From an uncultured Thermoplasmata archaeon (GTDB lineage Archaea > Thermoplasmatota > Thermoplasmata > JAJSAE01): a stretch of DNA of 34,663 nt. The position numbers were made by a program, and so were the translations under genes. This document shows positions 165-34,663 of this stretch, in pieces. Positions within the stretch are counted from its first letter, which is position 1; each line of letters opens with the position of its first letter. The notes under the pieces are model-generated. The model was not told the origin of the DNA, made no database searches, and was given only the letters and a program-made list of their open reading frames with translations. The stretch is taken from assembly GCA_964552865.1 (NCBI GenBank), contig CAZKII010000006.1:1-34663 (forward strand). Direction: 5' to 3'.

Positions 165-461
165 CTATCCTAGGATTATATGCTGCTGTTTCTCCGGGAC
201 ATCCTCCCCAATAACTATCATCTTCCTCCTGCATGATTCGCAGAGCTCAACAATTCTCACCTTGTCTCCCTGTTCTAGACCATAGTTCTTCAGCCTATCC
301 CTCAATTCATTGAACCCTGGCCGGTCTAATTCCCCCATAAACACGCTGTACTGCGCCCGTTGTAGTCCATAGTACTCTAGAAGTTTAGATAGGGCCGTTC
401 TTGTTTTTGTTTCCTTTATGTCATACATCACAATGAGAAACACCACGCCTTTCATCTCCAC
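165..461 (-). CDS. cas2: CRISPR-associated endoribonuclease Cas2
   Basis: 98 aa with IVMYDI, R-x-Q-Y-S-V-F-x-G and D-K-V-R-I...LCESC motifs; overlaps the cas1 end. Confidence 0.95.
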   Translation of the reverse strand: MEMKGVVFLIVMYDIKETKTRTALSKLLEYYGLQRAQYSVFMGELDRPGFNELRDRLKNYGLEQGDKVRIVELCESCRRKMIVIGEDVPEKQQHIILG

Positions 462-1447
462 TTGAACCCCCTGTATAGAATTCCATTCTCAATGCTCTCT
501 GCCAGAGCTTTTGCCTGCTTATAGATTATATCTAGAAATGGAATGCTCTCCCCCTCGTAGTTGTGTTTCTCCTCCATTCTTTGGTACAATGCGTTTAGAT
601 ACACCTTTTTTGCGGGGTCCTTAAACATGCACATGTCGCCCGACATCTCGAAGTCTTCTGGAGCCACCGTCCCTCTGCCTGCAAGTGTCATGACCACTCT
701 GTCCACAATAGGCTGTCTGAACTCTTCTATGAGGTCGTATGTGAGCGATCTTCGGTTCCGGTAAACGCTATGCAGTACGCCTTCGTAAGGATTCAGTCCT
801 GCCAGCATGAGGCTGTACTCAACTCTGGAGGCGAGCACCGTGTATCCGTAGCTGAGCATCGAGTTAATCGGGTCCGTTGGGGGATGCTTTATTCTCTTGG
901 TGAAGCCGAATCTATCCGGAAGTATCACGGATAATGCAGCAAAGTACTCCCTTGCTGATGCCCCCTCCTTCCCCATGAGTTGCTCTCTGTCCTTTGTGGA
1001 GAATACCTCTTCTCTCATGGCTTCCAGACGCTCTATATGAACTGAGAGCCCTAGGTTCCGGTTCCGGTCAGTTATTTTAAGCAGTCGTAGCTTATTGTAA
1101 ATCGAAGAATCAACCATCTCCTGTGCGATGAATAACGCTTCGCTGTCGTCCAGAAGTATCTGCCGCTTCCATAAATCAGTTATTCTTGTGTCGTCCATCG
1201 TCATTACTCTGGCAAAAAAGTTTGGTCTATGGGTAACGAATACTAAGTCCACTCCATTCTCTATCAGGAGTTTCACAGTTCCAGAGGAAATAGAGGCTTC
1301 TCCTGTTATTATCAATTGCTCAATCTCTCTGGGGCTGAAGCGGATGGTCTCCCCCTCATTGGATCGTACGGAAACGAGGTTTCCATCCTTCCGTATCTTG
1401 TATCCAACTCCCGAAATTACAAGGTTTCTTAGCTTCTTTTCTATCAT
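452..1447 (-). CDS. cas1: CRISPR-associated integrase Cas1
   Basis: EGASAREYF, DPINSMLSYGY, GVLH and DLIEEFR motifs; no RT fusion. Confidence 0.96.
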   Translation of the reverse strand: MIEKKLRNLVISGVGYKIRKDGNLVSVRSNEGETIRFSPREIEQLIITGEASISSGTVKLLIENGVDLVFVTHRPNFFARVMTMDDTRITDLWKRQILLDDSEALFIAQEMVDSSIYNKLRLLKITDRNRNLGLSVHIERLEAMREEVFSTKDREQLMGKEGASAREYFAALSVILPDRFGFTKRIKHPPTDPINSMLSYGYTVLASRVEYSLMLAGLNPYEGVLHSVYRNRRSLTYDLIEEFRQPIVDRVVMTLAGRGTVAPEDFEMSGDMCMFKDPAKKVYLNALYQRMEEKHNYEGESIPFLDIIYKQAKALAESIENGILYRGFKWR

Positions 1448-2772
1448 AACTCTAACTTAGCAAATCTTCCCTGCTGGATGTATTGGTCATTTATTCCAAT
1501 CCGACTCATGAGCTCTCGGGCTTCCTTTCTCAGCTTCTTGGCCTGTTTCTCATTGCCCAAATGCCATGCGTGGATAAGATACAGATGGTTTCTCGGGTTG
1601 ATAACATCTTTTATGTTTTTTATCTCGTCCATCTTAACCAGCGAATCTCCTAGGGCCAGAAGGAGAATGTACCCGTCAAGGAGTCCAATCTTGTTCTTTA
1701 GAATACCATTGCCTTCTCCCATAATTTCTACCTTTATTCGGGTGAAATCGTTTCTTGCAGACTTTATCTCCTCTTTGCTGAAATCTATGTTCCCCGTATT
1801 TATGCCTCTTAGGCCGAGTTGATGCTGTGAAACCATCTCCACCACCCTGTAGTATCGCAGAATTGCCTCACTATGGCGTCCTATCTCCTCGTATCTCCTC
1901 CCAGAGTTGTAAATGGAAGCGATCATAGGCCATGCCGTTTCTCTCTTGGAGATGTAGCCGAAATAGTCCTCAGTTCCGTCTGCGCTCCGAATCTCTCTTG
2001 CGGGCTCTAGAAATTCCAGATATCCCTTTAGCACATCTGCATCAACAGGGTACATCTGGTACTGCTCGGATTTCTTAAGGGCCATATTGATCTGCTTATG
2101 AGCCTTGTCGAAAAGAAAGGCCGCCCAGTCCTTAAAACCCTTCGATAGCAGTAAAATTATGTCTGCAAGTCTCGGATCCCTTGCAACCTGCTTAACCTCT
2201 TCAAGTAGAGGAATGACTGCATTGAAGTTGTAGTTATTGAACAGCTCTATCGCCCTTCCCATAAGGAGATCGCCGCTGGTGTGGAGTGGGTTGGGCAGAC
2301 TTTCTAGGAATTCTGAACCTGGTGCCGGCTTTCGTGTTATTGGGTCGTATTCTGTATAGTTCGTATAAATGATTTCCAAACCATAGAAGGCTCCAGCAAC
2401 AGAGGCCATAGCGCTCATAGCTTTCTTTCCCCCTGTTATGTCAATCGCTATCCTGTCTCCCTCGTGCTTGGAGATTATGATCTTTATCTCATCGTAAATC
2501 TCCTTGGAATCTGTTTTCAGTTCTACGATGGAATAATCCCCTGGCCCAAGTCCAACCTCCTTTATTATGTCTGCGGCCTCTCTGGTGGTTTCTGCGGTTG
2601 TTAGAAAGAATACTTTTCTGGGCCTTATCGAAAGTATGGCCCGCCGGATTGGCTCCCTGCTTTTACCCACTACGGATATGAGCACATCATATCTGCCATC
2701 CCACTCCACATGTCTCTGAACGAAATTCCTGTCTGATTCTGGGATTAGAAGCTCTCCAGCCATTGGCATCAA
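1444..2772 (-). CDS. CARF-HEPN cOA-activated ribonuclease (Csx1/Csm6-like, TIGR02710-type)
   Basis: N-terminal CARF motifs (ISVVGKSREP, IDITGGKKAMS); helical middle; C-terminal RYYRVVE and HEPN-like R-N-x5-H (RNHLYLIH). Confidence 0.85.
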   Translation of the reverse strand: MMPMAGELLIPESDRNFVQRHVEWDGRYDVLISVVGKSREPIRRAILSIRPRKVFFLTTAETTREAADIIKEVGLGPGDYSIVELKTDSKEIYDEIKIIISKHEGDRIAIDITGGKKAMSAMASVAGAFYGLEIIYTNYTEYDPITRKPAPGSEFLESLPNPLHTSGDLLMGRAIELFNNYNFNAVIPLLEEVKQVARDPRLADIILLLSKGFKDWAAFLFDKAHKQINMALKKSEQYQMYPVDADVLKGYLEFLEPAREIRSADGTEDYFGYISKRETAWPMIASIYNSGRRYEEIGRHSEAILRYYRVVEMVSQHQLGLRGINTGNIDFSKEEIKSARNDFTRIKVEIMGEGNGILKNKIGLLDGYILLLALGDSLVKMDEIKNIKDVINPRNHLYLIHAWHLGNEKQAKKLRKEARELMSRIGINDQYIQQGRFAKLEL

Positions 2773-2774
2773 CT

Positions 2775-3989
2775 CTACACTGTTCCTTCAGGATATGGGT
2801 CGTTCGGGAGATAGTGCCACTTTCTATCCACACTGAATCTCACTTTGTTCGGCTTCATCCTCGCAGATGTTTTTCCCGTTATTCTATTTTCTCTGCTCAG
2901 CAGCTGCACGATATCATCAATCTGGGAGAATTTCATGTTATGGAAGAATATCCAGCCTGTCAATTCGGAGCCAGCAGGCAGGTAGTCTCTGGGAATATTG
3001 CTAGGCAACTCCCAGAAAAATGCGTCTGAAACCACCATTCTAGAAGCATCCCCTCCCATTTGCGTGGATCCAAAGACCTCTTTTACCTCTTCACGGTTCC
3101 AGCGAGTATTCATCTCCTTTCGCAGGAACCCCTTTATAGTGGAGCCGGGAATCACAGGTAAATCGTTCATTGTTACGGTATCCTCCCCGACGCCGGGCAC
3201 TCTGAAATCGCTCAAGCACTCCACGCTGAACTCATACACCACAGCTCCCCTGTTCTCGGAGGTGGCATACGCATCAAAGTCCTTGCAATCCAGTGGTTCG
3301 TAATTACGGACGGGTTGAACCTTCGGTAGTTCAACTACCTCTTCTATTATTTTTATCCCATCTAGACTCTTCTTAATGACCCTGTCGATAGTCGGGGAAG
3401 CGAAGCCGTTACCCCTAGAGCTAGCGCCCCCTATCTGCAACCGTCTGTATTCAAACTCGTTTATGACCCAATTCAGGAGCTGTAGTTCTCCTTCTGTCGG
3501 ATTATCCACTCTTATGGTTCCGGTGAATTTCAACGGTTCTATAACCTCTTCAGTCCGAAAATTTGGTCTCATCTTCCCATTGCGTCCTTTTCTAGGGTTG
3601 ACATGTGGGCGGTCCTTTACTTGCCATATCTCTCCACCTTCTGGATAAAAATCCCTCACTGTGACCTTTGACCTCGCTTTCATAGAGCCAAAGAGATTCT
3701 CGACAATGCTAACCGCTTTTTTTTCTGTTTTACCCCAATCACCGTCATACAAGTTCGTCTTAAGGATGCGCTCTGCAGCGGCTCTCATAACTCCCTTTAG
3801 GCTGGAGCCGGGTATGAACGGAACATAATTCTTGTTCCCTGCGTCGTATGAGAGAAGAACTGGGGCCGATGAAATTGAGTATTGTGCAGCCATATCAGTT
3901 GCCCCGATACGCAATGGTGTTTCCATCTGAATTGATAGATTGATTTCATATTGGCTCTCTAATCGAGAGAAATCTGTTTCTTCGACCAT
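2775..3989 (-). CDS. Type III RAMP with two tandem Cas7-like domains (Csm3/Csm5-like fusion)
   Basis: Two RAMP motifs (PFIPGSSLKGVMR, PVIPGSTIKGFLR) and one G-loop (IGGASSRGNG). Start moved to ATG 3989, behind a GGTGGTGG SD-like sequence. Confidence 0.85.
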   Translation of the reverse strand: MVEETDFSRLESQYEINLSIQMETPLRIGATDMAAQYSISSAPVLLSYDAGNKNYVPFIPGSSLKGVMRAAAERILKTNLYDGDWGKTEKKAVSIVENLFGSMKARSKVTVRDFYPEGGEIWQVKDRPHVNPRKGRNGKMRPNFRTEEVIEPLKFTGTIRVDNPTEGELQLLNWVINEFEYRRLQIGGASSRGNGFASPTIDRVIKKSLDGIKIIEEVVELPKVQPVRNYEPLDCKDFDAYATSENRGAVVYEFSVECLSDFRVPGVGEDTVTMNDLPVIPGSTIKGFLRKEMNTRWNREEVKEVFGSTQMGGDASRMVVSDAFFWELPSNIPRDYLPAGSELTGWIFFHNMKFSQIDDIVQLLSRENRITGKTSARMKPNKVRFSVDRKWHYLPNDPYPEGTV

Positions 3990-4000
3990 ACCACCACCGT

Positions 4001-4705
4001 CTATTGAATCTCTCCTTTCACATACTCTGCCCAATCTCTCATGGCAGCATCTCTATCGGCTAACAGGGTTCCATCCGTTCCGCTTAGGTAGTCTTGAGGT
4101 GTGAATTCCCGTATCTCTCGAATATCTATCTCTACCTGTCCGAACCCCCTGGAGGTCCCACCTCCTATCGAGCCACCTGTAGCATTAAAGAAGTCAACGG
4201 TGGAGAGGAAAGCCCCTATTTTTGCATCCTTGTGCCCTTCAATCCTGGGATTTTCTATTATTACGGTTCCCGAGAATGTGATCCCTTCTGGAACTACTTC
4301 GAATTCGTGTTTTCCTCCTGCGGCGGCTTTTCTTGTTTTTCTGTCTATGGGTACACCATCACGCACCCTTGTTTCTTTCCTGTTAGCTACTGCATCCCTG
4401 AATCTTATCGAAGAGGCATATGATTCTTTGCTCCCTTTCTTTATCTCTCCCCCGAACAGAATTGCCACAAGCTCCTGAACCCTTTCCTCGTTGTTTAGAA
4501 TGCTGTTCAGAAACCGTTCCATCTCTGACCTTAATACTCCTTTAAGGGTGGATCCGGGAACTATGGGGTATCCTTTTGAGTTTTTTATCACATAATTGTC
4601 TAGTTCTCCGGGTAGAGTGCTGTTGTGTGCTCCAATCCTCATATCACTGAGTGTCCTTATCTCGTAGCTTATCACCACTCTTTTCTCCAGTTTCTCAAAC
4701 ATCAA
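4001..4705 (-). CDS. csm3: Type III Cas7 backbone subunit (Csm3-like) with putative catalytic Asp
   Basis: RIG...LDNYVIK...PIVPGSTLKGVLRS, LFGG, IGGGTSRGFG. Confidence 0.88.
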   Translation of the reverse strand: MMFEKLEKRVVISYEIRTLSDMRIGAHNSTLPGELDNYVIKNSKGYPIVPGSTLKGVLRSEMERFLNSILNNEERVQELVAILFGGEIKKGSKESYASSIRFRDAVANRKETRVRDGVPIDRKTRKAAAGGKHEFEVVPEGITFSGTVIIENPRIEGHKDAKIGAFLSTVDFFNATGGSIGGGTSRGFGQVEIDIREIREFTPQDYLSGTDGTLLADRDAAMRDWAEYVKGEIQ

Positions 4706-5172
4706 TATCGCCTCCTTCTCTCGTCTTCTCCCCCAGAGCTTTCGATCTTTCTGAGATACTCTTCCTCCTTTCCCTTGAGGCCAATCATTGAAAATTCGGC
4801 TTCTATCATACCTCTCCTTCCGGAACTGTCGAGTTTGTCCAAAGAATCAGCGGTCCATGCAAGGTATCCTATTGTGTACTGTAACCTTTCCAGCATCTCT
4901 TCGTCTGTGAGCCCTTTTTCCCTCATGGCAGTAATCTTCTTTAATATTTGCTCAAGGGTCTTGCTAAAATCGGAGCGAGGAAGCATGTACTCGATATACT
5001 TTATAAAATGTAGCACTGCATCTTCCGGGTCAGTGAACTGCCTTAGTGCCCCTGCCATGGACTTTATTTTGCTCCTGCTATCTTCTTTCTTGTTTCCTTT
5101 ATCCACCACCATCCCATTGGCGTATATGTCCCATGCATCTATTACACACTCTTTTATTACTTCTTCTTTCAT
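4702..5172 (-). CDS. Small alpha-helical protein, putative Cas11-like small subunit (copy 2)
   Basis: Charged helical ~156 aa protein inside the effector operon; ATG 5172 follows a GGAGG SD; shares a C-terminal motif with the upstream ORF. Confidence 0.55.
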   Translation of the reverse strand: MKEEVIKECVIDAWDIYANGMVVDKGNKKEDSRSKIKSMAGALRQFTDPEDAVLHFIKYIEYMLPRSDFSKTLEQILKKITAMREKGLTDEEMLERLQYTIGYLAWTADSLDKLDSSGRRGMIEAEFSMIGLKGKEEEYLRKIESSGGEDERRRRY

Positions 5173-5176
5173 TCCA

Positions 5177-5629
5177 CTACCTCCTTCTATCGTATCTGCC
5201 ACCCTGATTTTGTGGCCTGTTTCTATTCTCTTTTTTCTTAATCATCCGTTCTATTTCACCGGTGAACTGAATCTTCTCAGCCTCCATCCCCATCCTTAAC
5301 AACTTCTCTTCGCTCTTTGAATAGAAATAGAGCTCCCATAAGATGTATCTTAGTGTTTGAATCATTTCCTCATGAGTCATCTCACTCGTTTCCTTCTTGA
5401 AATCGTTGTAGAAATCATTCAGTAACCTCTTTTTTTCTGCAACAATTCTTGGATTTGGAGCCTGAGGTCGATATGAAAGTACTATCTGTCTGAAATCCTC
5501 AATGCCCTTCCCAGAGCTCAGATGCATCAGAAGTTCTCTGATTTTTCCGTTCATAGTATCGTCCAAACGGGTTGTTGCAACTTTGGCCGTAAGAATCCAT
5601 GAAATCTGGTTTATCTCTGCTAATTTCAT
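5177..5629 (-). CDS. Small alpha-helical protein, putative Cas11-like small subunit (copy 1)
   Basis: 150 aa, helical, translationally coupled (ATGA overlap) to the Cas5-group RAMP; occupies the typical csm2 position. Confidence 0.55.
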   Translation of the reverse strand: MKLAEINQISWILTAKVATTRLDDTMNGKIRELLMHLSSGKGIEDFRQIVLSYRPQAPNPRIVAEKKRLLNDFYNDFKKETSEMTHEEMIQTLRYILWELYFYSKSEEKLLRMGMEAEKIQFTGEIERMIKKKENRNRPQNQGGRYDRRR

Positions 5630-6693
5630 TGAACCACCTCATTGATAAAATATGTATCACCGAAAATGTGGTGATCTTCACCAAGACCAAACAGCTCTAT
5701 GAACGCCATCAGCTCAGGATTTGCCGTGATTCTTGCAGAACTTCCAGGCCCTATCGCAGGCCTGAGATTCATGAGTTTGTATCCTGCCTTCATGTCCCAG
5801 CCTCTTGCAAGAGAAGGAGTTGGAGAGCGCTGCTCCTTAACTGAAAACTCAATTGGAAGCTGCATGTTCGTGTGAGAAAGCGTTTTGGATATGTATTCTC
5901 TTATGAGATTCTCATCGAAGTATCTCAGATATCCTTTTTCACTACGCAGTATAAGCTCATTATTCGATACCATGATTGCACTCCTATCTCTGTTAGCGTT
6001 GCTCTCTATGTAATCACCTGCGTTTTTCTCCTCGATAAACTCTATGTCTATGCTACCATATCCCTTTGAGCGGAGGCCGCCTACTCCGTAGAAAATACCT
6101 GCCTCTTTTAGAGCATTCTTAATATCATCTACATAATCGTCTTGCAAAACCATACGAAAATCAAACTGTGTCCCAGGGAGTATTGCCTCGACATTGTATG
6201 GTGATTTGTAGCCATCATCAGTAGGTAGATAGCTTGAATGCCTGATGGGATTTATAGGGCACTTCGTACTTATGGTCTTATGTACTTTTTTACTCTCAAC
6301 CATCTTCGGTAGGGTATGCTCTGGACCAATTTCAAACCAGCCACTTCTCTTTTTCCCCTCGTGTCCACAGTTTGCACATGTTTTCTCTTCTCCATCCTCC
6401 CCCTTCAGAATGAGAGAACCACATCTTTTACACCACTTCACTATGTTTGGAATCGAACGCTGGCCATAGGGCAGAGCAGGTTTGAAAAACATCGTAGGCG
6501 AAGCATCGTCTGAGATTCTAGTTCTTTCGAATAATTCCCTGTTCTCATTAAATAAGTAATTTCCCAGCATCCCTCTTATCGCCTTTGCAGTAATATAATC
6601 CTTGGTTTCCAGAAATGTCCCAATTGAAACTCCAGTGCCTATATGGATCGGTTCTAAAGCCCTAATCTTCCCATTGAGAAGGAGATAGCTCAT
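5626..6693 (-). CDS. Cas5-group RAMP (Csx10/Csm4-like) with Zn-ribbon insertion
   Basis: ALEPIHIG, YITAKAIRGMLG, CKRC...CANC, GVGGLRSKGYG, and a second C-terminal G-loop (GLGEDHHIFG). Confidence 0.8.
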   Translation of the reverse strand: MSYLLLNGKIRALEPIHIGTGVSIGTFLETKDYITAKAIRGMLGNYLFNENRELFERTRISDDASPTMFFKPALPYGQRSIPNIVKWCKRCGSLILKGEDGEEKTCANCGHEGKKRSGWFEIGPEHTLPKMVESKKVHKTISTKCPINPIRHSSYLPTDDGYKSPYNVEAILPGTQFDFRMVLQDDYVDDIKNALKEAGIFYGVGGLRSKGYGSIDIEFIEEKNAGDYIESNANRDRSAIMVSNNELILRSEKGYLRYFDENLIREYISKTLSHTNMQLPIEFSVKEQRSPTPSLARGWDMKAGYKLMNLRPAIGPGSSARITANPELMAFIELFGLGEDHHIFGDTYFINEVVQ

Positions 6694-7271
6694 GAAAACA
6701 CCTCCATTTTGAAATCACTAACATCAATCTCTTTCATATCCGCTTCAAAACCACCGAGACCACGAGAGCGCTCTCCTCCAATTCCATAGTGTTGTGCCGA
6801 TTTGAGAGAGGCCTTTAAGATCTCTACATGCTTCTCAGAGTTGTCTCCCTTCAATGCTATGTAGCCTGTAAATAGTGTTTCTTGGGGCACAAGTTTCTGT
6901 GAATAGAGCCCTCCTTCATTTTTGGAGTTTGAACCGTATTTAAGAGAGATTTTCACATGAACTCTTTCTGTGAGGGCATCAAGAGGGGCATGGAGGTCGA
7001 AGAACTTAACAGCTGGTTCCTTATAGCCGCCATCCCGATTTTCCTGCTCTTGACTTCCAAATATATCGCCAACTATCTCTTTTTCAACTCCCAATCTTCT
7101 TGCTTCTTGCCTGAGCAGGCCCTTTATGTGAGAGGCGGGTATCACCAAACGCTCCTCGATTTTTTCGCCCACTGCAAAAGCACTCCTTAGAACATCAATT
7201 GTAGAGCCCCGGTTCTCTCCTGCAGTCTGAAAGTCATTTAGCAATCTCAACTCCAGCCGATATAACTTCAT
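6690..7271 (-). CDS. Compact Cas7-family RAMP
   Basis: VIPASHIKGLLR, IFGS, GIGGERSRGLG; coupled to cas10. Confidence 0.85.
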   Translation of the reverse strand: MKLYRLELRLLNDFQTAGENRGSTIDVLRSAFAVGEKIEERLVIPASHIKGLLRQEARRLGVEKEIVGDIFGSQEQENRDGGYKEPAVKFFDLHAPLDALTERVHVKISLKYGSNSKNEGGLYSQKLVPQETLFTGYIALKGDNSEKHVEILKASLKSAQHYGIGGERSRGLGGFEADMKEIDVSDFKMEVFS

Positions 7272-9442
7272 TCACCCACCTCCACTCCATTAAAATCATT
7301 ACCGCTGTGCCAGACCATGGGGATCAGTTCATCTATTGGGAGTAAAAGCTCATCTTCCACTAGCACTTTGGATGTTTCCTCCATTAAAGCAATAGGACTC
7401 ATCCCCTCGGAATCTGCTGCCCTCATGATGATATCCTTATCGCTGATTTTCGAGTAGAGGAACTTTATCAGGTTTAGGCGATCCTCAACCTTGGTTCCTC
7501 CATTAATTATGAGGGAAACAAAGGATCTCCACTTTTCTCGGTTCCCACCGGTTACCCGTTCTACGAATTTCTGGATAATCGATAGGTCAATCTCCCTGTC
7601 AGGAAGTATGAAAGTGAAGTTCCTCTCACTTGGCATACTGCTACTTACCACAGAGAATGAAAGACTTCCTTTGGGGAGGATAAAGAGCCCACTTTTGTTC
7701 ACCGCTTTTTTTCTGAATTCCTCTTTACTGCTGGTTTCAAGCTTTTTAGCTTTCTCTATCAAGAAGTAAACCGGGAACTTGTGATCCGCAATAGATATTC
7801 CTGCAGAGAGCGTTATCATGGGGGTGCCCATACATTCCTCTTGGGCTGGTGAGTACCTGAACTCTTCAGCAACCTCATTAATCAGAGTTTTAGTTACTTT
7901 AAGCGCATTTTTTGCGTCTACAATGAACATTATATCGTCACCCCCAACATATAGCAATCTGCTTTTATCTGGAAGGACTCCTCTCACAATCTCGCCAATC
8001 CGTTTCTTTACGAACCGACTCTTGAAGGCATAATCCGTTGGCGTTTTACTTTGGGCAAACAATCGTCCCATCATATTTCCATCTGCTACTACTATTGCAA
8101 TACTTTCTCCTATCTCTTTTAGGTCCTTCGGACCAGTCGTGTTATTCCGCCCGTACTCATACTTCGTGAAACACACTTCACAAACTCTATCACCCCTTAC
8201 TTCTCGGGTTGCTTCTCGAGAGCCGCAGTGCTTGCATAGCTCAGAACTCTTATTGAGCCGCACTTCTGGGAGCGGGGTTTCGCCAATTACTTCAAGTCTC
8301 TTACACTCTTCTACGCACTTTCCGAAATCGGATGCAATAGCAGAGGCATCAAAGAATTTGTAGCTAATACTTGCAGAAAGACCTCCTCTGCTGATATCCG
8401 AAATCATTTCTATAAGATCATTTTTAAGAGCCCTTACAACCCCCTCTTCAAATGGAGTTATGACGACCATATTCCCACCGCCGATGTAAACGATGTTATC
8501 GGTGGAGAGATACTTTGAAACTATCATTTTTGCCTCTTCCGAAATGACCTTCTCAATGATATAACTCGCTCCAGAAATCTCCAAGAGCTTTTTAGACTCT
8601 CCAATGAATCTTTGAATTCCATGAATGTCCATGTAAAGGAGACCGAGCTTGTCTCGGAAAATCTGATTTTTGGATTGAGGCACTTTTAATTCGCCGTGTA
8701 AAGTTGGAATGTCTGCCTTTTCGTTTCCGCCCATGCTCTGGCTTTCGCCCGGCATCATACAGAACTTCTCTCCCCCAATAATCACATAGTGCGAAAAGGG
8801 GGAGTCATTAATAATATTTCCAGAGTCATCAAATTTCAAGTCTCCGCTTCTATTGGCCGCTGAAGCGATGGAGTCGGCATCGGCAACCACTCTGTGTAAC
8901 TCTGTGTTCGCTTGATATTCTTTGTAGTAATCTGGAGTGTGATGCCTAGGTGCAATGGATACAATTCTTTTCCAGAACTCCCCAAGAGGGCTGTTAATAT
9001 TACTGATACCCTTGTCGCCAATCTTCTTAAGGATTTCTTCGGTATACCTTACATGAGTGGTGAAACTAGGTTTTTCTTCCTTTTCAATGGATGAGAACAC
9101 ACGGATTTTTCCAATATCGTGGAGAAGTGCCGAAATCCTTATCTTATCCACCTCATCAGAGTAGCCTCGGTTTATCGCAAGAGAAACCGCTATAGCAGCA
9201 GTTGTTTTGAGATGATCCAGTAGGGAAGATACTGGGAGTTTTGTGTATTCAGGTGTAAACTCAAGGCCAAGAGTTTGGAGTTTATCAGATATTGCATCTC
9301 CTACGGTGCGATAATCCGTTCCTTCGTTTTCTCTCAATACCTCGGCAATCCCTTCAACACATCTTTGTTCCAGTTCTTTCATATCCATTTCGGACAAAAG
9401 TTTCTCCTTGGTAAAGTAGTTCGTTACAAATATTTCATTCAT
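7268..9442 (-). CDS. cas10: Cas10 (type III large subunit) with HD nuclease and cyclase palm domains
   Basis: LLHDIGK, HH, ADADSIAS; DIHGIQRFI/YIGGGN; CxxC...CxxC; ADGNMMG and YVGGDD. Confidence 0.95.
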   Translation of the reverse strand: MNEIFVTNYFTKEKLLSEMDMKELEQRCVEGIAEVLRENEGTDYRTVGDAISDKLQTLGLEFTPEYTKLPVSSLLDHLKTTAAIAVSLAINRGYSDEVDKIRISALLHDIGKIRVFSSIEKEEKPSFTTHVRYTEEILKKIGDKGISNINSPLGEFWKRIVSIAPRHHTPDYYKEYQANTELHRVVADADSIASAANRSGDLKFDDSGNIINDSPFSHYVIIGGEKFCMMPGESQSMGGNEKADIPTLHGELKVPQSKNQIFRDKLGLLYMDIHGIQRFIGESKKLLEISGASYIIEKVISEEAKMIVSKYLSTDNIVYIGGGNMVVITPFEEGVVRALKNDLIEMISDISRGGLSASISYKFFDASAIASDFGKCVEECKRLEVIGETPLPEVRLNKSSELCKHCGSREATREVRGDRVCEVCFTKYEYGRNNTTGPKDLKEIGESIAIVVADGNMMGRLFAQSKTPTDYAFKSRFVKKRIGEIVRGVLPDKSRLLYVGGDDIMFIVDAKNALKVTKTLINEVAEEFRYSPAQEECMGTPMITLSAGISIADHKFPVYFLIEKAKKLETSSKEEFRKKAVNKSGLFILPKGSLSFSVVSSSMPSERNFTFILPDREIDLSIIQKFVERVTGGNREKWRSFVSLIINGGTKVEDRLNLIKFLYSKISDKDIIMRAADSEGMSPIALMEETSKVLVEDELLLPIDELIPMVWHSGNDFNGVEVGE

Positions 9443-31927: not shown

Positions 31928-32680
31928 TTACCCCTCTATCCCCATCTCTTCTTTCTTTTTCCTCTCCCGTTTGCGCCTCTCTTCCTCCTCTTTCTTCTCC
32001 TTCTCCCTCAATTTATCCATCTTCTCCCGAATCGGGCAGTCATAGTCCGGTTCCGGGCACGGCTCCGTTCTGCAGGTCGGCCCCGCCTTCTCGAATATTA
32101 CGGGTGCCACCTTCTTGACCTCGGTCATCATGCGGTTGGCCATCTCCCTTATCTCCCACTGGGCCCTCATGCATGTGCGTATCTTGAAGAAGCCGAGGAG
32201 TTCCCGGGCGTTCATGGTCACAACGATGTTCGTGGTGCAGGCATTGGGGAGAAGGTAGCGGGCATCTTCGTTGGGAATCCCCATATCCGCAAGCTCTCCG
32301 TAGGCCTTCCATATCTCATCCATCAGTTTCTCGTATCTTTCGAGCGCCTCGGGATTCTTCTCAATGGTCTTTGGGGTGACATAGGAGGCCTTCTTCATGG
32401 AGACATACCGCTGGCTCTGCTGAGAGTAGGAGGCGATTCTGTGCCTTACGAGCTGATGCGTCAGAGCGCGAGAAACCCCTTCTATGCTGAATGTGAAAAC
32501 CGCATGTTCTATGACGGAATGATGGCCGCTGGCCACCACGCGCTTGATTATCCTCTCGGACTTCTCCGGGCTTATTTTCTCTATGATCCTGCTGGCTGAC
32601 TGGCTGGAATAACAGGTGTTCGCGGCCACAGAGGCCAGCCTGTCCGGTTCCGGCGTGTAGGCTATCAACTCGACCTTCAT
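31928..32680 (-). CDS. thyX: FAD-dependent thymidylate synthase
   Basis: GHHSVIEH, RHRIASYSQQSQRY, EDARYLLP, AQWEIR; start ATG 32680 with a TATA ~25 nt upstream (leaderless). Confidence 0.97.
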   Translation of the reverse strand: MKVELIAYTPEPDRLASVAANTCYSSQSASRIIEKISPEKSERIIKRVVASGHHSVIEHAVFTFSIEGVSRALTHQLVRHRIASYSQQSQRYVSMKKASYVTPKTIEKNPEALERYEKLMDEIWKAYGELADMGIPNEDARYLLPNACTTNIVVTMNARELLGFFKIRTCMRAQWEIREMANRMMTEVKKVAPVIFEKAGPTCRTEPCPEPDYDCPIREKMDKLREKEKKEEEERRKRERKKKEEMGIEG

Positions 32681-32720
32681 GAGGAGGGGGATAGAGCGAG
32701 GGGATATATACCTTATCTCA

Positions 32721-32738
32721 AGGGAAAAGAGATATAAG
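32721..32738 (+). promoter_or_regulatory. BRE plus TATA, probably driving the repeat-tRNA transcript
   Basis: Purine-rich GGGAAAAGA followed by GATATAAG; the predicted start (~32760-32764) coincides with repeat 1. Confidence 0.55.
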
Positions 32739-32763
32739 AAGGAGGAGATTGTGTGATAGAAGG

Positions 32764-32952
32764 CCCGTAAAAGAAATTGGAAAAAAGGGGTAGTCAAACA
32801 GCGCACATGGGCCGATTGGTGTTGCGCTTTAGACTACCCCTGCACCTGTCCGATTTCCCCGTAAAAGAAATTGGAAAAAGGGGGGTAGTCAAACAGCGCA
32901 CTTGGACCCATTGGTGTTGCGCTTTAGACTACCCCTGCATCTGCCCAGTTAC
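32764..32952. repeat. Two tandem 94/95-bp hairpin repeats with tRNA-Leu-like arms
   Basis: Units 32764-32857 and 32858-32952, each CCCGTAAAAGAAATTGGAAAAA+GGGGTAGTC-AAAC-AGCGCAC...GTGTTGCGCT-TTA-GACTACCCC-TGCA. Differences are confined to the A/G run, the apical loop and the linker. Confidence 0.95.
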
Positions 32953-32957
32953 CCCAT

Positions 32958-33042
32958 GCAGGGGTAGTCAAGCATGGCCAACGGCGCAGGACTTAAGATC
33001 CTGTCCTTCAGAGGTTCGAGGGTTCGAATCCCTCCCCCTGCA
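32958..33042 (+). tRNA. tRNA-Leu(TAA)
   Basis: Acceptor GCAGGGG/CCCCTGC plus A; CAGGA-CTTAAGA-TCCTG; GAGGG-TTCGAAT-CCCTC; long variable arm; no intron; CCA not encoded. Confidence 0.96.
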
Positions 33043-33127
33043 CTATTGCCCTAAATGAAGAAAACGATAATCTTAAATATTCTTCATAACTGTAGAGCTG
33101 ATAAGAAGCAATTCTGGAGGTGAACCC

Positions 33128-34021
33128 ATGTCTGCACCTGTCTCAACTAACAAACCTCTTCTCGAATTGGCCTCTCTTGAGGTCATTCGACAATATGAAA
33201 AAAAAACAGGAGAGCCCATTACGGGCCTGTACTTCAATAAACTAATGTCTCTAGTTTATGCAGAGCTACGGAATAGGTACAACATAAATATTGAACTTCC
33301 ACATTGTTGGTATAGATATGGAGATGAAGTAGTACGCTACCTTATGCCAAACGCAATCAGATGGAATCACGAAACACCTCAATACACAACAGTCACATGG
33401 GTTGGCCAAGAACCGCTCACCCAGAGAGAAGAAAGAGAAATTATAAAAAGGGTAGTCAAGGAGACTATCAAAAAATATGAGCATAAAAGCAAAGAAGAGC
33501 TAGTTGATGATGTTTATTCTTCAGCCCCATTTACATTCCAAAGAAATTTTAGACAACTCCGGCTAAATATTGAAGGAATGGCAGTAGCTAGCGTTGGCAT
33601 CTCAAATTTCAAAGAAGTACTGAGATCATCGCTAGAACAAACCATAGAATCGTTTCCAAAGAAAGAGTTCCCAAATGAAGTTTATGAACGTATAACAAAC
33701 TATTACATGCTAATGAAAAAACTCTTAGAACTGCCGGAATTCAACGTCGAAATTGCTAAGGAACTTACAGAAGACATTTGGTTTTACTTCTCATATTATC
33801 TTAGAATACATAAAAAGTGCTATGAGAATATTCCCCGTAATGTCATTGAATATTGGAAGAGCCAACTAGAATTCCAAAAAAATAAGTTTGATAGGTTTTT
33901 CGCAGAGATTCTTCTTACGCTTAATTCAAAAAACATATTATTCGAAGGAGAACTCCAGGAGATTCTAGAAAAGAGAAAACAAGAAAAAAAAGAGGAACTG
34001 CAATTCATTGAAAACTTTTAA
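33128..34021 (+). CDS. Putative Panacea/SocA (DUF4065)-like antitoxin with helical C-terminal extension
   Basis: FNKLMSLVY...LPHCWYRYGD resembles the KL-x-Y...W-x-x-G-P Panacea pattern; GGAGGTGA SD; AT-rich; upstream of a PIN gene. Confidence 0.6.
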   Translation: MSAPVSTNKPLLELASLEVIRQYEKKTGEPITGLYFNKLMSLVYAELRNRYNINIELPHCWYRYGDEVVRYLMPNAIRWNHETPQYTTVTWVGQEPLTQREEREIIKRVVKETIKKYEHKSKEELVDDVYSSAPFTFQRNFRQLRLNIEGMAVASVGISNFKEVLRSSLEQTIESFPKKEFPNEVYERITNYYMLMKKLLELPEFNVEIAKELTEDIWFYFSYYLRIHKKCYENIPRNVIEYWKSQLEFQKNKFDRFFAEILLTLNSKNILFEGELQEILEKRKQEKKEELQFIENF

Positions 34022-34051
34022 ACGAACTAACTAAAAGACGGAGGCAGATGT

Positions 34052-34477
34052 TTGTGGGAAAAAATTGTTATAGATACATGCGCTCTCATAAACGACAAAA
34101 GTTTTTTTAAATGGCTAAATAGCTATAGAGGCTCTAAGATTCTACCACTTATTGCATACATAGAATATAGTATTGGCCAGAGAAGAAGAGGGAAAAACCA
34201 AGAAAAGATAGACTACTTAATAAAAAAAGTGGCGCAACTAGAGATTCCACAATTTACAACTAAAGAAGCAAGATACACAATTGAAATTGTTTCAGAGATC
34301 TTGGATGAAAGCCAAGGCTCAGATTTTAAGAAAAACTGGAGAGATACAATGATCGCCTCCCATGCATACTATGCCCCGACCCTGCTAGTCACAAATAATG
34401 TTTCAGATTTTAGTTTTCTTGAAAAACGTGTAGTGACTCCTGAAGAGATCAAAAAAAGATATCGTGATAGGATGTAA
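34052..34477 (+). CDS. PIN-domain (VapC-like) ribonuclease toxin
   Basis: IVIDTCALI, conserved E, RDTMIASHA, LVTNNVSDF; GGAGG 7 nt before the TTG start. Confidence 0.88.
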   Translation: MWEKIVIDTCALINDKSFFKWLNSYRGSKILPLIAYIEYSIGQRRRGKNQEKIDYLIKKVAQLEIPQFTTKEARYTIEIVSEILDESQGSDFKKNWRDTMIASHAYYAPTLLVTNNVSDFSFLEKRVVTPEEIKKRYRDRM

Positions 34478-34500
34478 GTAAGCATAATCCAGTTACTTAC
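34474..34500. terminator. Possible bidirectional terminator / inverted repeat between convergent genes
   Basis: GTAAGTAA-N11-TTACTTAC, containing both stop codons. Confidence 0.25.
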
Positions 34501-34663
34501 CTCCCCAGACTCTTATGTGCCTTCCCGAGGTCTCCGGCGGCCTGCGCTCCCATCAATGATATCTCACCGGCCAGAACGGCCCCGCCTATTATCTCCGCCA
34601 GCTTCTTAGCGCTGTTCTCACCGGAGCAGCCCATTATGCTCAGGGCCTCCCTCTGCGTATCCA
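34497..34663 (-). CDS. hmgA: HMG-CoA reductase (class I), C-terminal part; gene continues beyond the window
   Basis: Manual translation [11 protein letters not shown]...[19 protein letters not shown]...[10 protein letters not shown]; not in the ORF track. Confidence 0.92.

Follow-up and report, generated by a model that had tools for sequence, protein, structure and literature searches.

Tandem fold-back modules written in tRNA sequence precede tRNA-Leu(TAA) and other tRNA genes in a Thermoplasmata archaeon

The window analyzed here, a 34,663-nucleotide stretch of contig CAZKII010000006.1 from an uncultured Thermoplasmata archaeon, contains two tandem hairpin-forming units directly upstream of a tRNA-Leu(TAA) gene. 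Sequence, structural and comparative analyses suggest, with a probability of roughly one half, that these units are one locus of lineage-restricted, tRNA-derived fold-back cassettes, which would be self-masking, removed by RNase P and shuffled by recombination. The leaders of archaeal tRNA genes are usually thought to be short and featureless. In this rare vent archaeon and its relatives, about one third of the tRNA genes carry such modules, and would thus have long modular leaders written in the sequence of the tRNA itself.

Tandem Repeats Finder (TRF) reported a repeat at 32764-32943, with a period of 95, 1.9 copies, and 93% matches. ARAGORN and Infernal placed tRNA-Leu(TAA) at 32958-33043/33042 on the + strand. 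The features of the locus are as follows:

32731..32738, + strand: TATA-like box GATATAAG, from the sequence; kept in the sister species G001
32764..32858, + strand: module 1, the distal 95-bp unit, with A-rich lead-in, fold-back hairpin, and spacer (TRF, alignment)
32787..32797, + strand: sense arm of module 1 ("X-copy"), equal to tRNA nt 4-14
32800..32828, + strand: type-A core of module 1, with a 6-bp stem AGCGCA/TGCGCT and a 17-nt loop at 32806-32822
32832..32844, + strand: antisense arm of module 1 ("antiX"), the reverse complement of tRNA nt -1 to 12
32859..32957, + strand: module 2, the tRNA-proximal unit, with a spacer up to the tRNA (TRF)
32882..32892, + strand: sense arm of module 2, equal to tRNA nt 4-14, with two extra G before it
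32895..32923, + strand: type-A core of module 2, with stem AGCGCA/TGCGCT and loop 32901-32917
32927..32940, + strand: antisense arm of module 2, in a perfect 14-bp inverted repeat with 32956-32969
32941..32957, + strand: spacer from the last antisense arm to the mature tRNA 5' end; putatively a single-stranded stretch at the predicted RNase P site
32958..33043, + strand: tRNA-Leu(TAA), no encoded CCA (RF00005, 50.5 bits)

The sequence GGGGTAGTCAA, found at 32787-32797 and 32882-32892, is identical to nt 4-14 of tRNA-Leu(TAA); the tRNA start in reverse complement, GACTACCCCTGCA, occurs at 32832-32844 and 32927-32939. The antisense arm of module 1 also ends like the tRNA 3' end (CCCCTGCA). The sense copies in the window are 11 nt long and lie 95 and 79 bp apart. 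TRF, ARAGORN, Infernal, and sequence comparison thus confirmed the repeat, the arms, the inverted repeat, and the tRNA position given by the first-pass annotation. The hairpins of the two units fold at -28.5 and -27.5 kcal/mol (z about -5.2 and -5.1; none of 200 shuffled sequences folds as well), and the hairpin formed by 32927-32969 folds at -24.1 kcal/mol (z -5.4). Of the 82 aligned columns, 11 differ between the two units; 6 of these lie in the spacer, 3 in the loop, and 2 in the A/G stretch preceding the arm. Stems and internal loops show zero differences. Identical stems with a differing loop, which had been taken as a sign of selection on structure, are therefore real inside the window; family-wide, however, half of the loop is among the best-conserved parts.

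The GATATAAG box is the nearest TATA-like box on the tRNA side, and is probably the promoter of a leader-plus-tRNA transcript. An identical "agagatataaga" lies upstream of the G001 array. The box had been described as the only clear one; it is present, but there is a second TATA-like box, GATATATA, at about 32703-32710, which probably serves the divergent thyX gene. The sole reading frame across the repeats (93 aa, 32777-33058) continues through the tRNA, an example of the spurious frames that gene callers put on such arrays. Directly 3' of tRNA-Leu(TAA), the GC content drops from about 0.52 to 0.32-0.41, which probably reflects a past insertion on that side of the gene.

This MAG is fragmented into 165 contigs, a number of its tRNA genes are found less than about 100 nt from a contig end, and unitigs of run X1 break within the repeat. 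An artefact of assembly, or a chance repeat, has nevertheless a negligible probability. Run X2, which belongs to another study, yielded a 3,850-nt contig that spans 32500-33044 with 5 substitutions and no gap; the metagenome contig L088 has both units too; and orthologous arrays are present in G001 and in a further genome, G053. The duplication was thereby upheld. Such arrays probably break assemblies at tRNA genes, many of which lie near contig ends.

A covariance model, R1, was built on 15 copies and used with a threshold of E<0.01. It gave 8 matches in this genome (G000) and 15 in the sister species G001. In the window, it matched module 1 at 32781-32847 (78.7 bits) and module 2 at 32876-32942 (81.7 bits). 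All 23 matches lie upstream of a tRNA gene and on the strand of that tRNA, and their arms fit the adjoining tRNA (Leu, Ser, Arg, Lys). A blastn search within the genome likewise found related cores adjoining tRNA-Leu(GAG) and tRNA-Arg(TCT). Other hairpin cores built to the same plan precede the Val, Pro, and Gln genes. The type-B cores and the spacer TGAACGAAGTGAA were found solely beside tRNA starts in a genome-wide search. The first-pass annotation had asked whether the arms of copies beside other tRNA genes match those tRNAs; they do, and its view of tRNA-mimicking hairpins of an unnamed family gains support from these matches.

The arms follow the local gene closely. An upstream region of 300 nt contains a direct copy (at least 9 nt) of nt 1-22 of its own tRNA at 6 of 26 genes in G000 and 11 of 38 in G001, compared with 11/610 and 8/1306 non-self pairs, respectively. 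In the control genome G013 the count was 2/39, and both of these loci hold a second tRNA gene. The direct copies at other loci are 9-22 nt long. Position 7 of tRNA-Val differs between the two species, A in G000 but G in G001, and the upstream copies change with it. Each of the three tRNA-Gly genes has a type-A-like core in the opposite orientation on its 3' side, behind a T-rich tract. Among the R1 matches and type-B cores there are no dispersed copies away from tRNA genes; the loop-motif matches all lie beside a tRNA start or end, except for one 10-mer match that is probably due to chance. An element homing to tRNA 5' ends had been suggested earlier. The cassette dynamics described below fit that idea, but the absence of copies away from tRNA genes and the mirrored version at 3' ends do not.

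The family appears to be narrowly distributed. Among 151 sampled genomes of the class, strong R1 matches occur only in G000, G001, and G053; G080 has one weak match (25.2 bits), at a locus also holding tRNA-Arg(GCG). A third Thermoplasmata lineage has a richer version of the modules. Blastn against 40 relatives matched only G001 below E 1e-6. Of the 10 stretches returned by a pattern scan of genome contigs, 5 belong to one archaeal MAG and 1 to a Thermoplasmata MAG, and 4 are bacterial chance matches; a scan of metagenome contigs returned 12 (4 near-identical to this genome, and 8 unrelated and without a tRNA). The Rfam search of 32000-33600, at E up to 10, found only the tRNA and five weak unrelated matches, in agreement with the earlier statement that no named family matches. 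No description of such modules was found in a literature search, whose reach ended before supplementary tables (e.g. Table S3 of PMC3218864). With neither an Rfam family nor a paper found, the modules apparently form an undescribed family, and R1 offers a simple marker for this little-known order.

Each cassette consists of a sense copy, a hairpin core drawn from a small conserved set, an antisense copy, and a spacer. The sense copy covers the first 9-18 nt of the following tRNA, and the antisense copy the same start. The type-A core is a 6-bp GGYGCA/TGCRCC stem with a 17-nt loop. In the alignment A1, 85% of the cells are paired and 18 cells are changed on both sides, which 0 of 500 shuffles reach; slid controls gave 31-47% paired. 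G-C to A-T swaps distinguish orthologous and tandem copies. The loop sequence TTGGTGT and the 3' stem are invariant, or nearly so, in the 15 copies, and columns 36-64 of the Leu(TAA) locus are identical at 28 of 29 positions across two species. The stem mismatches comprise 6 G.U and 7 A.C, showing no wobble bias, so the stems carry no RNA-specific signal. The apparently compensatory changes could arise from palindrome correction at the DNA level. The mirrored modules downstream of the Gly genes also point to a DNA-level process.

The design varies between loci and species. The antisense arms are imperfect at the Arg, Ser, and Lys loci, the spacer ranges from 3 to about 20 nt, and different, unrelated cores are used in the same design. 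In the Leu(TAA) units of G001 the sense arms have decayed and the antisense arms are perfect. Species differ in cassette number and order, and cores are shared among several tRNA genes. This genome has two Leu(TAA) units and G001 has three; the Arg(TCT) array reads B,B',A,B here, B,B'',A in G001, and A,A in G053. Copies upstream of the tRNA genes of G053 are longer, pseudo 5' halves that extend to as far as nt 38-43. At least one repeat unit of this genome, at Arg-CCT, includes the promoter itself; thus, not every relative has a simple leader. Inspection by eye revealed no C/D-box, H/ACA, K-turn, or bulge-helix-bulge motifs. An intron was rejected, because the sense arm in the window lacks tRNA nt 1-3 and an exon role is therefore impossible. 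A promoter in each unit (TTTAGAC / TTAAGAC at -35) was also rejected, as the corresponding sequence is CTCTGG or CTCTCG in the units of Leu(GAG), Leu(CAG), and Ser.

The modules occupy the place of a pre-tRNA 5' leader: downstream of the promoter, ahead of the mature 5' end, and on the tRNA strand. A strict TATA-like box within 60 nt of the tRNA was found at 22 of 42 module-free genes and at 0 of 23 module-bearing genes, whose boxes lie at -75 to -398; the regular expression was home-made, and missed the box in the window and TTATATAAAT at 10-20 nt before tRNA-Val(GAC). Across 21 arrays (3,598 nt of sense strand) there are no T runs of at least 5 and ten such A runs; for runs of at least 4, the counts are 3 T and 18 A. 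Strict TATA-like boxes upstream of the arrays, together with the avoidance of sense oligo-T, make it probable that the modules are part of long transcribed pre-tRNA leaders. The type-A-like core after tRNA-Gly may lie outside the transcript with the tRNA. RNase P RNA is encoded (182.6 and 186.8 bits), so loss of RNase P was rejected as a cause of the odd leaders.

In the proposed mechanism of the fold-back cassettes, RNA polymerase would start about 25 nt past the TATA box, upstream of the entire array. As each cassette emerges, its sense arm would pair with its own antisense arm, masking both halves. An unmasked sense copy could capture the 3' acceptor strand of the tRNA, and an unmasked antisense copy could trap the real tRNA 5' end. 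RNase P would then remove the leader at +1 of the tRNA. Since each cassette starts with the tRNA's own start, arrays could expand, contract, and exchange cassettes through recombination or template switching between the repeats and the gene; such recombination would also keep the arms matched to the tRNA. Two observations argue against selection for masking. Pure masking leaves the near-invariance of half the type-A loop unexplained; and the decayed sense arms with perfect antisense arms at G001 Leu(TAA) are the opposite of what strict masking predicts. If the cassettes are merely tolerated, they would be a natural example of "mutual masking", in which copies harmful singly survive as a hairpin, and of cassette shuffling driven by a repeated gene start.

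The near-invariant loop speaks for a regulatory leader, a reading akin to the mutually exclusive folds proposed in the first-pass annotation. It would be a two-state RNA switch, in which the antisense arm alternates between the decoy, when the tRNA is free and processed, and the tRNA 5' end, when the tRNA is misfolded and RNase P is blocked. A trans-acting factor or temperature would read the conserved 17-nt loop and set the balance for a subset of tRNAs. We regard this as possible, although rather unlikely. In silico, the antisense arm does form two mutually exclusive helices that share one strand, at -27.5 kcal/mol with the decoy and -24.1 kcal/mol with the tRNA start. Hairpin plus cloverleaf reach about -61.2 kcal/mol, and the minimum-energy fold of unit 2 and the tRNA -66.4 kcal/mol; in the latter, the tRNA start is bound by the antisense arm, and the tRNA 3' strand by the G-run of the leader. 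A leader of 100 nt shifts the balance back again (P(leader)=0.14). Nucleotides 2-8 of the tRNA are predicted to be leader-paired at P>0.5 in 13/23 module-bearing precursors versus 4/41 module-free ones. These folds were computed with 37 C parameters, ignoring tRNA tertiary structure, modification, and co-transcriptional order. The predicted states are near-isoenergetic, which makes a true folding switch possible if unproven, and the element is kept in three lineages. On the other hand, neither an effector nor a ligand-like pocket nor an Rfam match was found, and no regulation was evidenced; the mutually exclusive folds stand as predictions. The complement of the loop is absent elsewhere in the genome. 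In the search for a partner of the loop, TTGGTGTTGC was found 5 times, 4 times in units and once probably by chance, and no rRNA or RNase P site came up. The imperfect antisense arms, variable spacers, and unrelated cores noted above fit a switch poorly, as does the mirrored Gly version downstream of its gene. That the cassettes make up a new class of target-programmed cis riboregulators, with bistable tRNA maturation at RNase P and the shared loop as a handle for a factor or temperature, is an unlikely proposal. If it is true, one factor, or vent temperature, would release or block a tRNA subset (Leu, Ser, Arg, Lys), and the mirrored tRNA-Gly modules would be a variation of a general principle of tRNA supply control. 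If the switch is used, it would be the first natural archaeal leader switch on RNase P maturation, with specificity derived from the target and no guide gene.

The units might also be scars of integrative elements, namely attL/attR-type partial tRNA copies left by repeated plasmid or virus integration and loss, with the 5' part of the tRNA as target. According to PMC8371274, tRNA genes are common targets of archaeal integrases, tRNA-Arg(TCT) and Val(CAC) frequently so; the pTN3-like enzymes use the 5' half, and an element promoter then drives the rebuilt gene. PMC3218864 reports partial tRNA fragments in archaeal genomes, including Aeropyrum and Thermosphaera. A direct repeat of a tRNA segment beside an intact gene, the long pseudo 5' halves in G053, and the GC drop 3' of tRNA-Leu(TAA) are in line with such scars. 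However, no coding remnant lies between the 11-13-nt copies, an att scar leaves the antisense copy and the hairpin cores shared by many tRNA loci unexplained, and the units form tandem arrays whose copy number differs between close species. This origin is therefore improbable. A casposon was considered as a further source, since the casposase of A. boonei reads TCAAATC in the tRNA T-loop and makes a 14-15-bp duplication (PMC6614799). Cas1 matches were found twice in G000 and once in G001. The Cas1 gene of the window lies in a type III CRISPR-Cas gene row and that of G001 near a CRISPR array; a casposon origin was rejected because the inspected Cas1 genes, which do not include the G000:C116 neighbourhood, belong to CRISPR loci. 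Separate minus-strand genes for small RNAs, each beginning with the first 12 nt of the tRNA, ending in a hairpin and a U-tract, and acting as decoys or antisense regulators, are highly improbable. The minus strand of the units folds just as well (-27.3 / -28.5 kcal/mol), and a T5-6 run follows its hairpin in the Leu(TAA) units of the window and of G001, so the reported U-tract is real at this gene. But the T-run is missing from the type-A copies of Leu(GAG), Leu(CAG), Ser, Arg, and Lys; the minus strand has no TATA-like box ahead of unit 2, the sequence there being tRNA antisense; and all 23 strong R1 matches are in the tRNA orientation.

The modules can be compared with several known systems. 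With ordinary archaeal pre-tRNA 5' leaders they share the tRNA strand and a place after the promoter and before the mature 5' end; unlike these, they are about 60-400 nt long, tandem, and modular, and contain sense and antisense tRNA copies. The RtT RNA, or 178-bp repeats, of the E. coli tyrT operon are also tandem repeats beside a tRNA gene with a short tRNA copy, and are co-transcribed and processed. However, they are bacterial and downstream, copy the tRNA 3' end, and have no antisense arm; the RtT model of Rfam gave no match in 32000-33600 at E up to 10. REP/BIME repeats and MITEs are likewise short imperfect palindromes in many copies, variable in number between relatives. They are scattered between genes and have their own arms, whereas every module copy found touches a tRNA gene and its arms take the local tRNA sequence. 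Attachment sites of the SSV and pTN3 types share the direct partial tRNA copy beside an intact gene, but the module copies are much shorter, with no element between them, and always come with an antisense copy and a core. Control of RNase P through the leader has been described for engineered leader riboswitches and for bacterial pairing between leader and 3' end (PMC8925977, PMC9433436). The shared idea is that leader pairing near the cleavage site sets RNase P access; those structures are synthetic, or pair a few nucleotides with the 3' RCCA, whereas the modules are natural and have a 13-14-nt antisense with its own decoy.

The observation made at tRNA-Leu(TAA) is real, and its extent is wider than the first-pass annotation could see. 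The repeat and its tRNA gene are located in the window as follows:

32764-32943: tandem repeat, 95-bp unit, 1.9 copies, directly upstream of tRNA-Leu(TAA)
32958-33043: tRNA-Leu(TAA)

Each unit contains GGGGTAGTCAA, which equals nt 4-14 of the tRNA (the sense arm), followed about 35 nt later by GACTACCCCTGCA (the antisense arm), which is the tRNA start in reverse complement. Between the second antisense arm and the tRNA there is a perfect inverted repeat of 14 bp (32927-32940 / 32956-32969). Both the coordinates of this two-unit repeat and the inverted repeat, as first annotated, were reproduced. The earlier claim that the units are alike in their stems and differ elsewhere also held: 11 of 82 aligned columns differ, none of them within either stem or the internal loops. 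The folding energy is about -28 kcal/mol per unit hairpin, with z near -5. A 93-aa open frame (32777-33058, plus strand) spans both modules and the tRNA; should an annotator accept it, it is likely a false gene call.

An assembly artefact, which would have undermined the annotation, was rejected. A 3,850-nt contig of a sequencing run from a different study (X2) spans 32500-33044 with no gaps and five substitutions (32744, 32746, 32753, 32769, and 32951), all outside the hairpins, and a metagenome contig (L088) carries the same two units. In the genome containing the window (G000), about a dozen of 33 tRNA genes are no more than about 100 nt from the end of a contig (contigs C12, C38, C50, C56, C63, C64, C65, C66, C92, C120, C146, and C160), and N runs interrupt two module arrays (C19 and C37). 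The assembly was probably broken by the module arrays.

In a blastn search of the units against the 165 contigs of G000, tRNA-Leu(GAG) and tRNA-Arg(TCT) proved to have related cores upstream, with arms that resemble these tRNAs and are unlike tRNA-Leu(TAA). Arms near other tRNAs do match those tRNAs. Many more related cores were found in the sister species (G001). A covariance model built on an alignment of 15 type-A copies gave 8 matches in G000 and 15 in G001 (E<0.01), the two genomes that represent the order. All 23 matches are upstream of a tRNA gene and on its strand; the genes are Leu(TAA), Leu(GAG), Leu(CAG), Ser(CGA), Ser(TGA), Arg(TCT), Arg(CCT), and Lys(CTT). Among 151 sampled genomes of the class, further strong matches were found only in G053, a member of another family, and one weak match in G080; among the matches of a public genome scan, one is from a Thermoplasmata archaeon. 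By reading of the upstream regions, modules precede 11 of 33 tRNA genes in G000 and 14 of 40 Rfam tRNA matches in G001 (38 of the 40 regions were read). No Rfam family matches the repeat units, in agreement with the annotation, which knew of no named family.

The arms follow their own tRNA. Direct copies of at least 9 nt of tRNA nt 1-22 occur in the gene's own upstream region in 6/26 cases in G000 (non-self pairs, 11/610) and 11/38 in G001 (non-self pairs, 8/1306); the counts leave out genes that have many N or fewer than 100 nt upstream, including two module-bearing genes of G000, Arg(TCT) and Leu(CAG). The control, a complete genome of another family (G013), gave 2/39, and both positives are loci with a second tRNA gene within the scanned stretch. 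The copies change with the gene from one species to the other: where tRNA-Val has A at position 7 (G000), its sense copies upstream are CCCATG, and where it has G (G001), they are CCCGTG.

The type-A modules share one order: the sense copy, 3-4 nt, a 6-bp stem with its loop, 3 nt, the antisense copy, and a spacer of 3-20 nt before the next module or the tRNA. The sense copy covers nt 1 (or 4) to 13-18 of the neighbouring tRNA and the antisense copy about nt 1-13. The core stem, GGYGCA/TGCRCC, closes a loop of 17 nt; all 15 copies agree at the positions C, TTG, and TTGC and throughout the 3' stem. At Leu(CAG) and Ser(CGA), one long closing stem (a perfect 12 bp at Leu(CAG)) surrounds two cores and another small hairpin. 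The type-B hairpins comprise several subtypes (e.g. ..AAACTCCGAAGGAYGTTT..) of the same design, flanked by GGGCYCRTG, which is the tRNA start, and its complement, with the spacer TGAACGAAGTGAA next. They precede Arg(TCT), Val, and Pro genes, another form precedes Gln genes, and a genome-wide search found none away from these positions. At tRNA-Lys(CTT) of G001 (L073), a copy of the tRNA T-arm and 3' end lies about 200 nt upstream, before two type-A modules; the sense arm of both reads GGGTTTG versus GGGCCTG in the tRNA, and pairing with the antisense arm is kept only as G.U.

The arrays also differ between species. At Leu(TAA), G000 has two units and G001 three, with an additional degenerate unit. 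At Arg(TCT), the order is B,B',A,B in the G000 organism (as seen in contig L097, where the N gap is closed), B,B'',A in G001, and A,A in G053. Across G000 and G001, 28 of 29 columns are identical in the 3' half of the Leu(TAA) unit, and the sense arm of this unit has decayed in G001; at the Arg, Ser, and Lys loci the imperfect arm is the antisense one.

Covariation analysis supported a two-helix structure: 85% of cells are paired in the alignment, versus 31-47% when the structure is slid, and 18 cells are changed on both sides, which was reached by 0/500 shuffles. Such changes, e.g. G-C to A-T swaps, are seen both among orthologous units and within an array, from one tandem unit to another. 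The mismatches (6 G.U versus 7 A.C) have no wobble bias, and therefore the stems cannot tell RNA from DNA as the selected form. Template-switch correction of quasi-palindromes is an established mechanism, and it could mimic the compensation in the stems.

Folding predictions (37 C equilibrium, ignoring tertiary structure and order of transcription) suggest competing pairings. The last antisense arm has a predicted energy of -27.5 kcal/mol with the decoy and -24.1 kcal/mol with the tRNA start. In the minimum-energy fold of unit 2 plus tRNA (-66.4 kcal/mol), the antisense arm pairs with the tRNA start and the leader G-run with the tRNA 3' strand; the hairpin plus cloverleaf alternative is at about -61.2 kcal/mol. 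Predicted pairing of tRNA nt 2-8 with the 100-nt leader (P>0.5) was found in 13/23 module-bearing and 4/41 module-free precursors of G000 and G001, after dropping short or N-containing upstream sequences and tRNAs >95 nt.

Of the module-free genes, 22/42 have a strict TATA-like pattern that begins within 60 nt of the tRNA, versus 0/23 of the module-bearing genes; the pattern used is crude and missed the window's own GATATAAG. In module-bearing genes the TATA-like boxes precede the arrays, at -75 to -398; inspection of Ser(CGA) and Leu(CAG) by eye places the end of the box 27-28 nt upstream of the first module. On the sense strand of 21 arrays (3,598 nt, limits set by eye), there are no T runs and 10 A runs of at least 5, and 3 T versus 18 A runs of at least 4, with base totals of A 893 and T 770. 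Since archaeal transcription terminates at oligo-T, this asymmetry is consistent with read-through towards the tRNA being under selection. Both genomes encode RNase P RNA. Taken together, this indirect argument from sequence fits transcription of the modules as part of the tRNA leaders.

An oppositely oriented type-A-like core, whose arms copy the T-arm segment TCAAATCCCG, one in antisense and one in sense, lies downstream of all three tRNA-Gly genes in both G000 and G001. It is preceded by a T-rich tract of 4-5 T. These mirrored hairpins are:

G000, C9: about 8417-8494
G000, C19: about 62-136
G000, C73: about 5020-5090
G001: loci L112, L113, and L116

The hairpin lies about 32 nt downstream of the gene, and a ACTAACCAAC..GGACAAACTA-like motif recurs in the trailer, in the loop, and further downstream.

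We give a probability of about one half to the reading that the Leu(TAA) units represent, at one locus, a family of fold-back cassettes that derive from tRNAs and lie in transcribed leaders. A plausible mechanism, proposed from the sequences, is self-masking: a sense copy alone could capture the tRNA 3' strand and an antisense copy alone the tRNA 5' end, and both together would form an inert hairpin that RNase P would remove with the leader. The repeated tRNA starts would let the arrays recombine, keeping the arms matched to the gene. Self-masking is the simplest account covering most facts. It does not account for the invariance of half the loop, for the mirrored Gly modules, or for antisense arms that are perfect at Leu(TAA), and therefore a genuine switch or a DNA-level function is possible instead of self-masking alone.

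Among tRNA-copy repeats within a tRNA transcript, the nearest case is the E. coli tyrT/RtT repeats. The literature searched gave no account of such modules, and the family is apparently undescribed so far. Archaeal leaders seen by RNA-seq are described as short in PMC3695527. Partial tRNA copies are known as integration scars (PMC8371274, PMC3218864), and pTN3-type integrases use the 5' half of tRNA genes (PMC8371274). Scars of this kind are not known to have the antisense arm, shared cores, or tandem order of the modules.

G053 has a richer form of the design (loci L166-L196, e.g. L167, L176, and L178), and its synteny with G000 is absent beyond the tRNA locus. Upstream direct copies of 10-22 nt occur in 13/38 tRNA rows, often as pseudo 5' halves upstream of real genes, broken up at the D-arm by two small hairpins that belong to other families. 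In one of these hairpin families the loop is always TATCCTCA, and the stems vary and covary freely. Several genes have copies of tRNA 3' ends downstream, and at Arg(CCT) the promoter is included in the repeat unit. A 70-nt repeat (GCGGGTTTTCCCCACC...) is present at five tRNA loci. The tRNA-Arg(TCT) promoter region is 96% identical over 54 nt between G053 (L081 31-84) and G000 (C19 10283-10336), although the genes on either side cannot be aligned as DNA. At tRNA-Arg(GCG) of G000 (C3 23192-23250), a 14-nt direct copy of the tRNA 3' end, 59 nt downstream, is followed by a 10-bp perfect hairpin (GAGCGCACTT/AAGTGCGCTC), which looks like a classical attachment-site scar or a terminator.

The window also contains a type III CRISPR-Cas gene row and two genes beyond the tRNA; TRF found no CRISPR array in the window:

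452-9442, minus strand: type III CRISPR-Cas gene row, including three RAMP proteins
452-1447, minus strand: Cas1
1444-2772, minus strand: Csm6-like CARF/HEPN protein
7268-9442, minus strand: Cas10 with HD domain
33128-34021: 297-aa protein with no Pfam match
34052-34477: PIN-domain protein, weak match

The GC content drops right after tRNA-Leu(TAA), from about 0.52-0.57 to 0.32-0.41 (33044-34663), and the DNA following this gene in the sister species is different. The segment 33044-34663 is probably an island inserted on the 3' side of tRNA-Leu(TAA).
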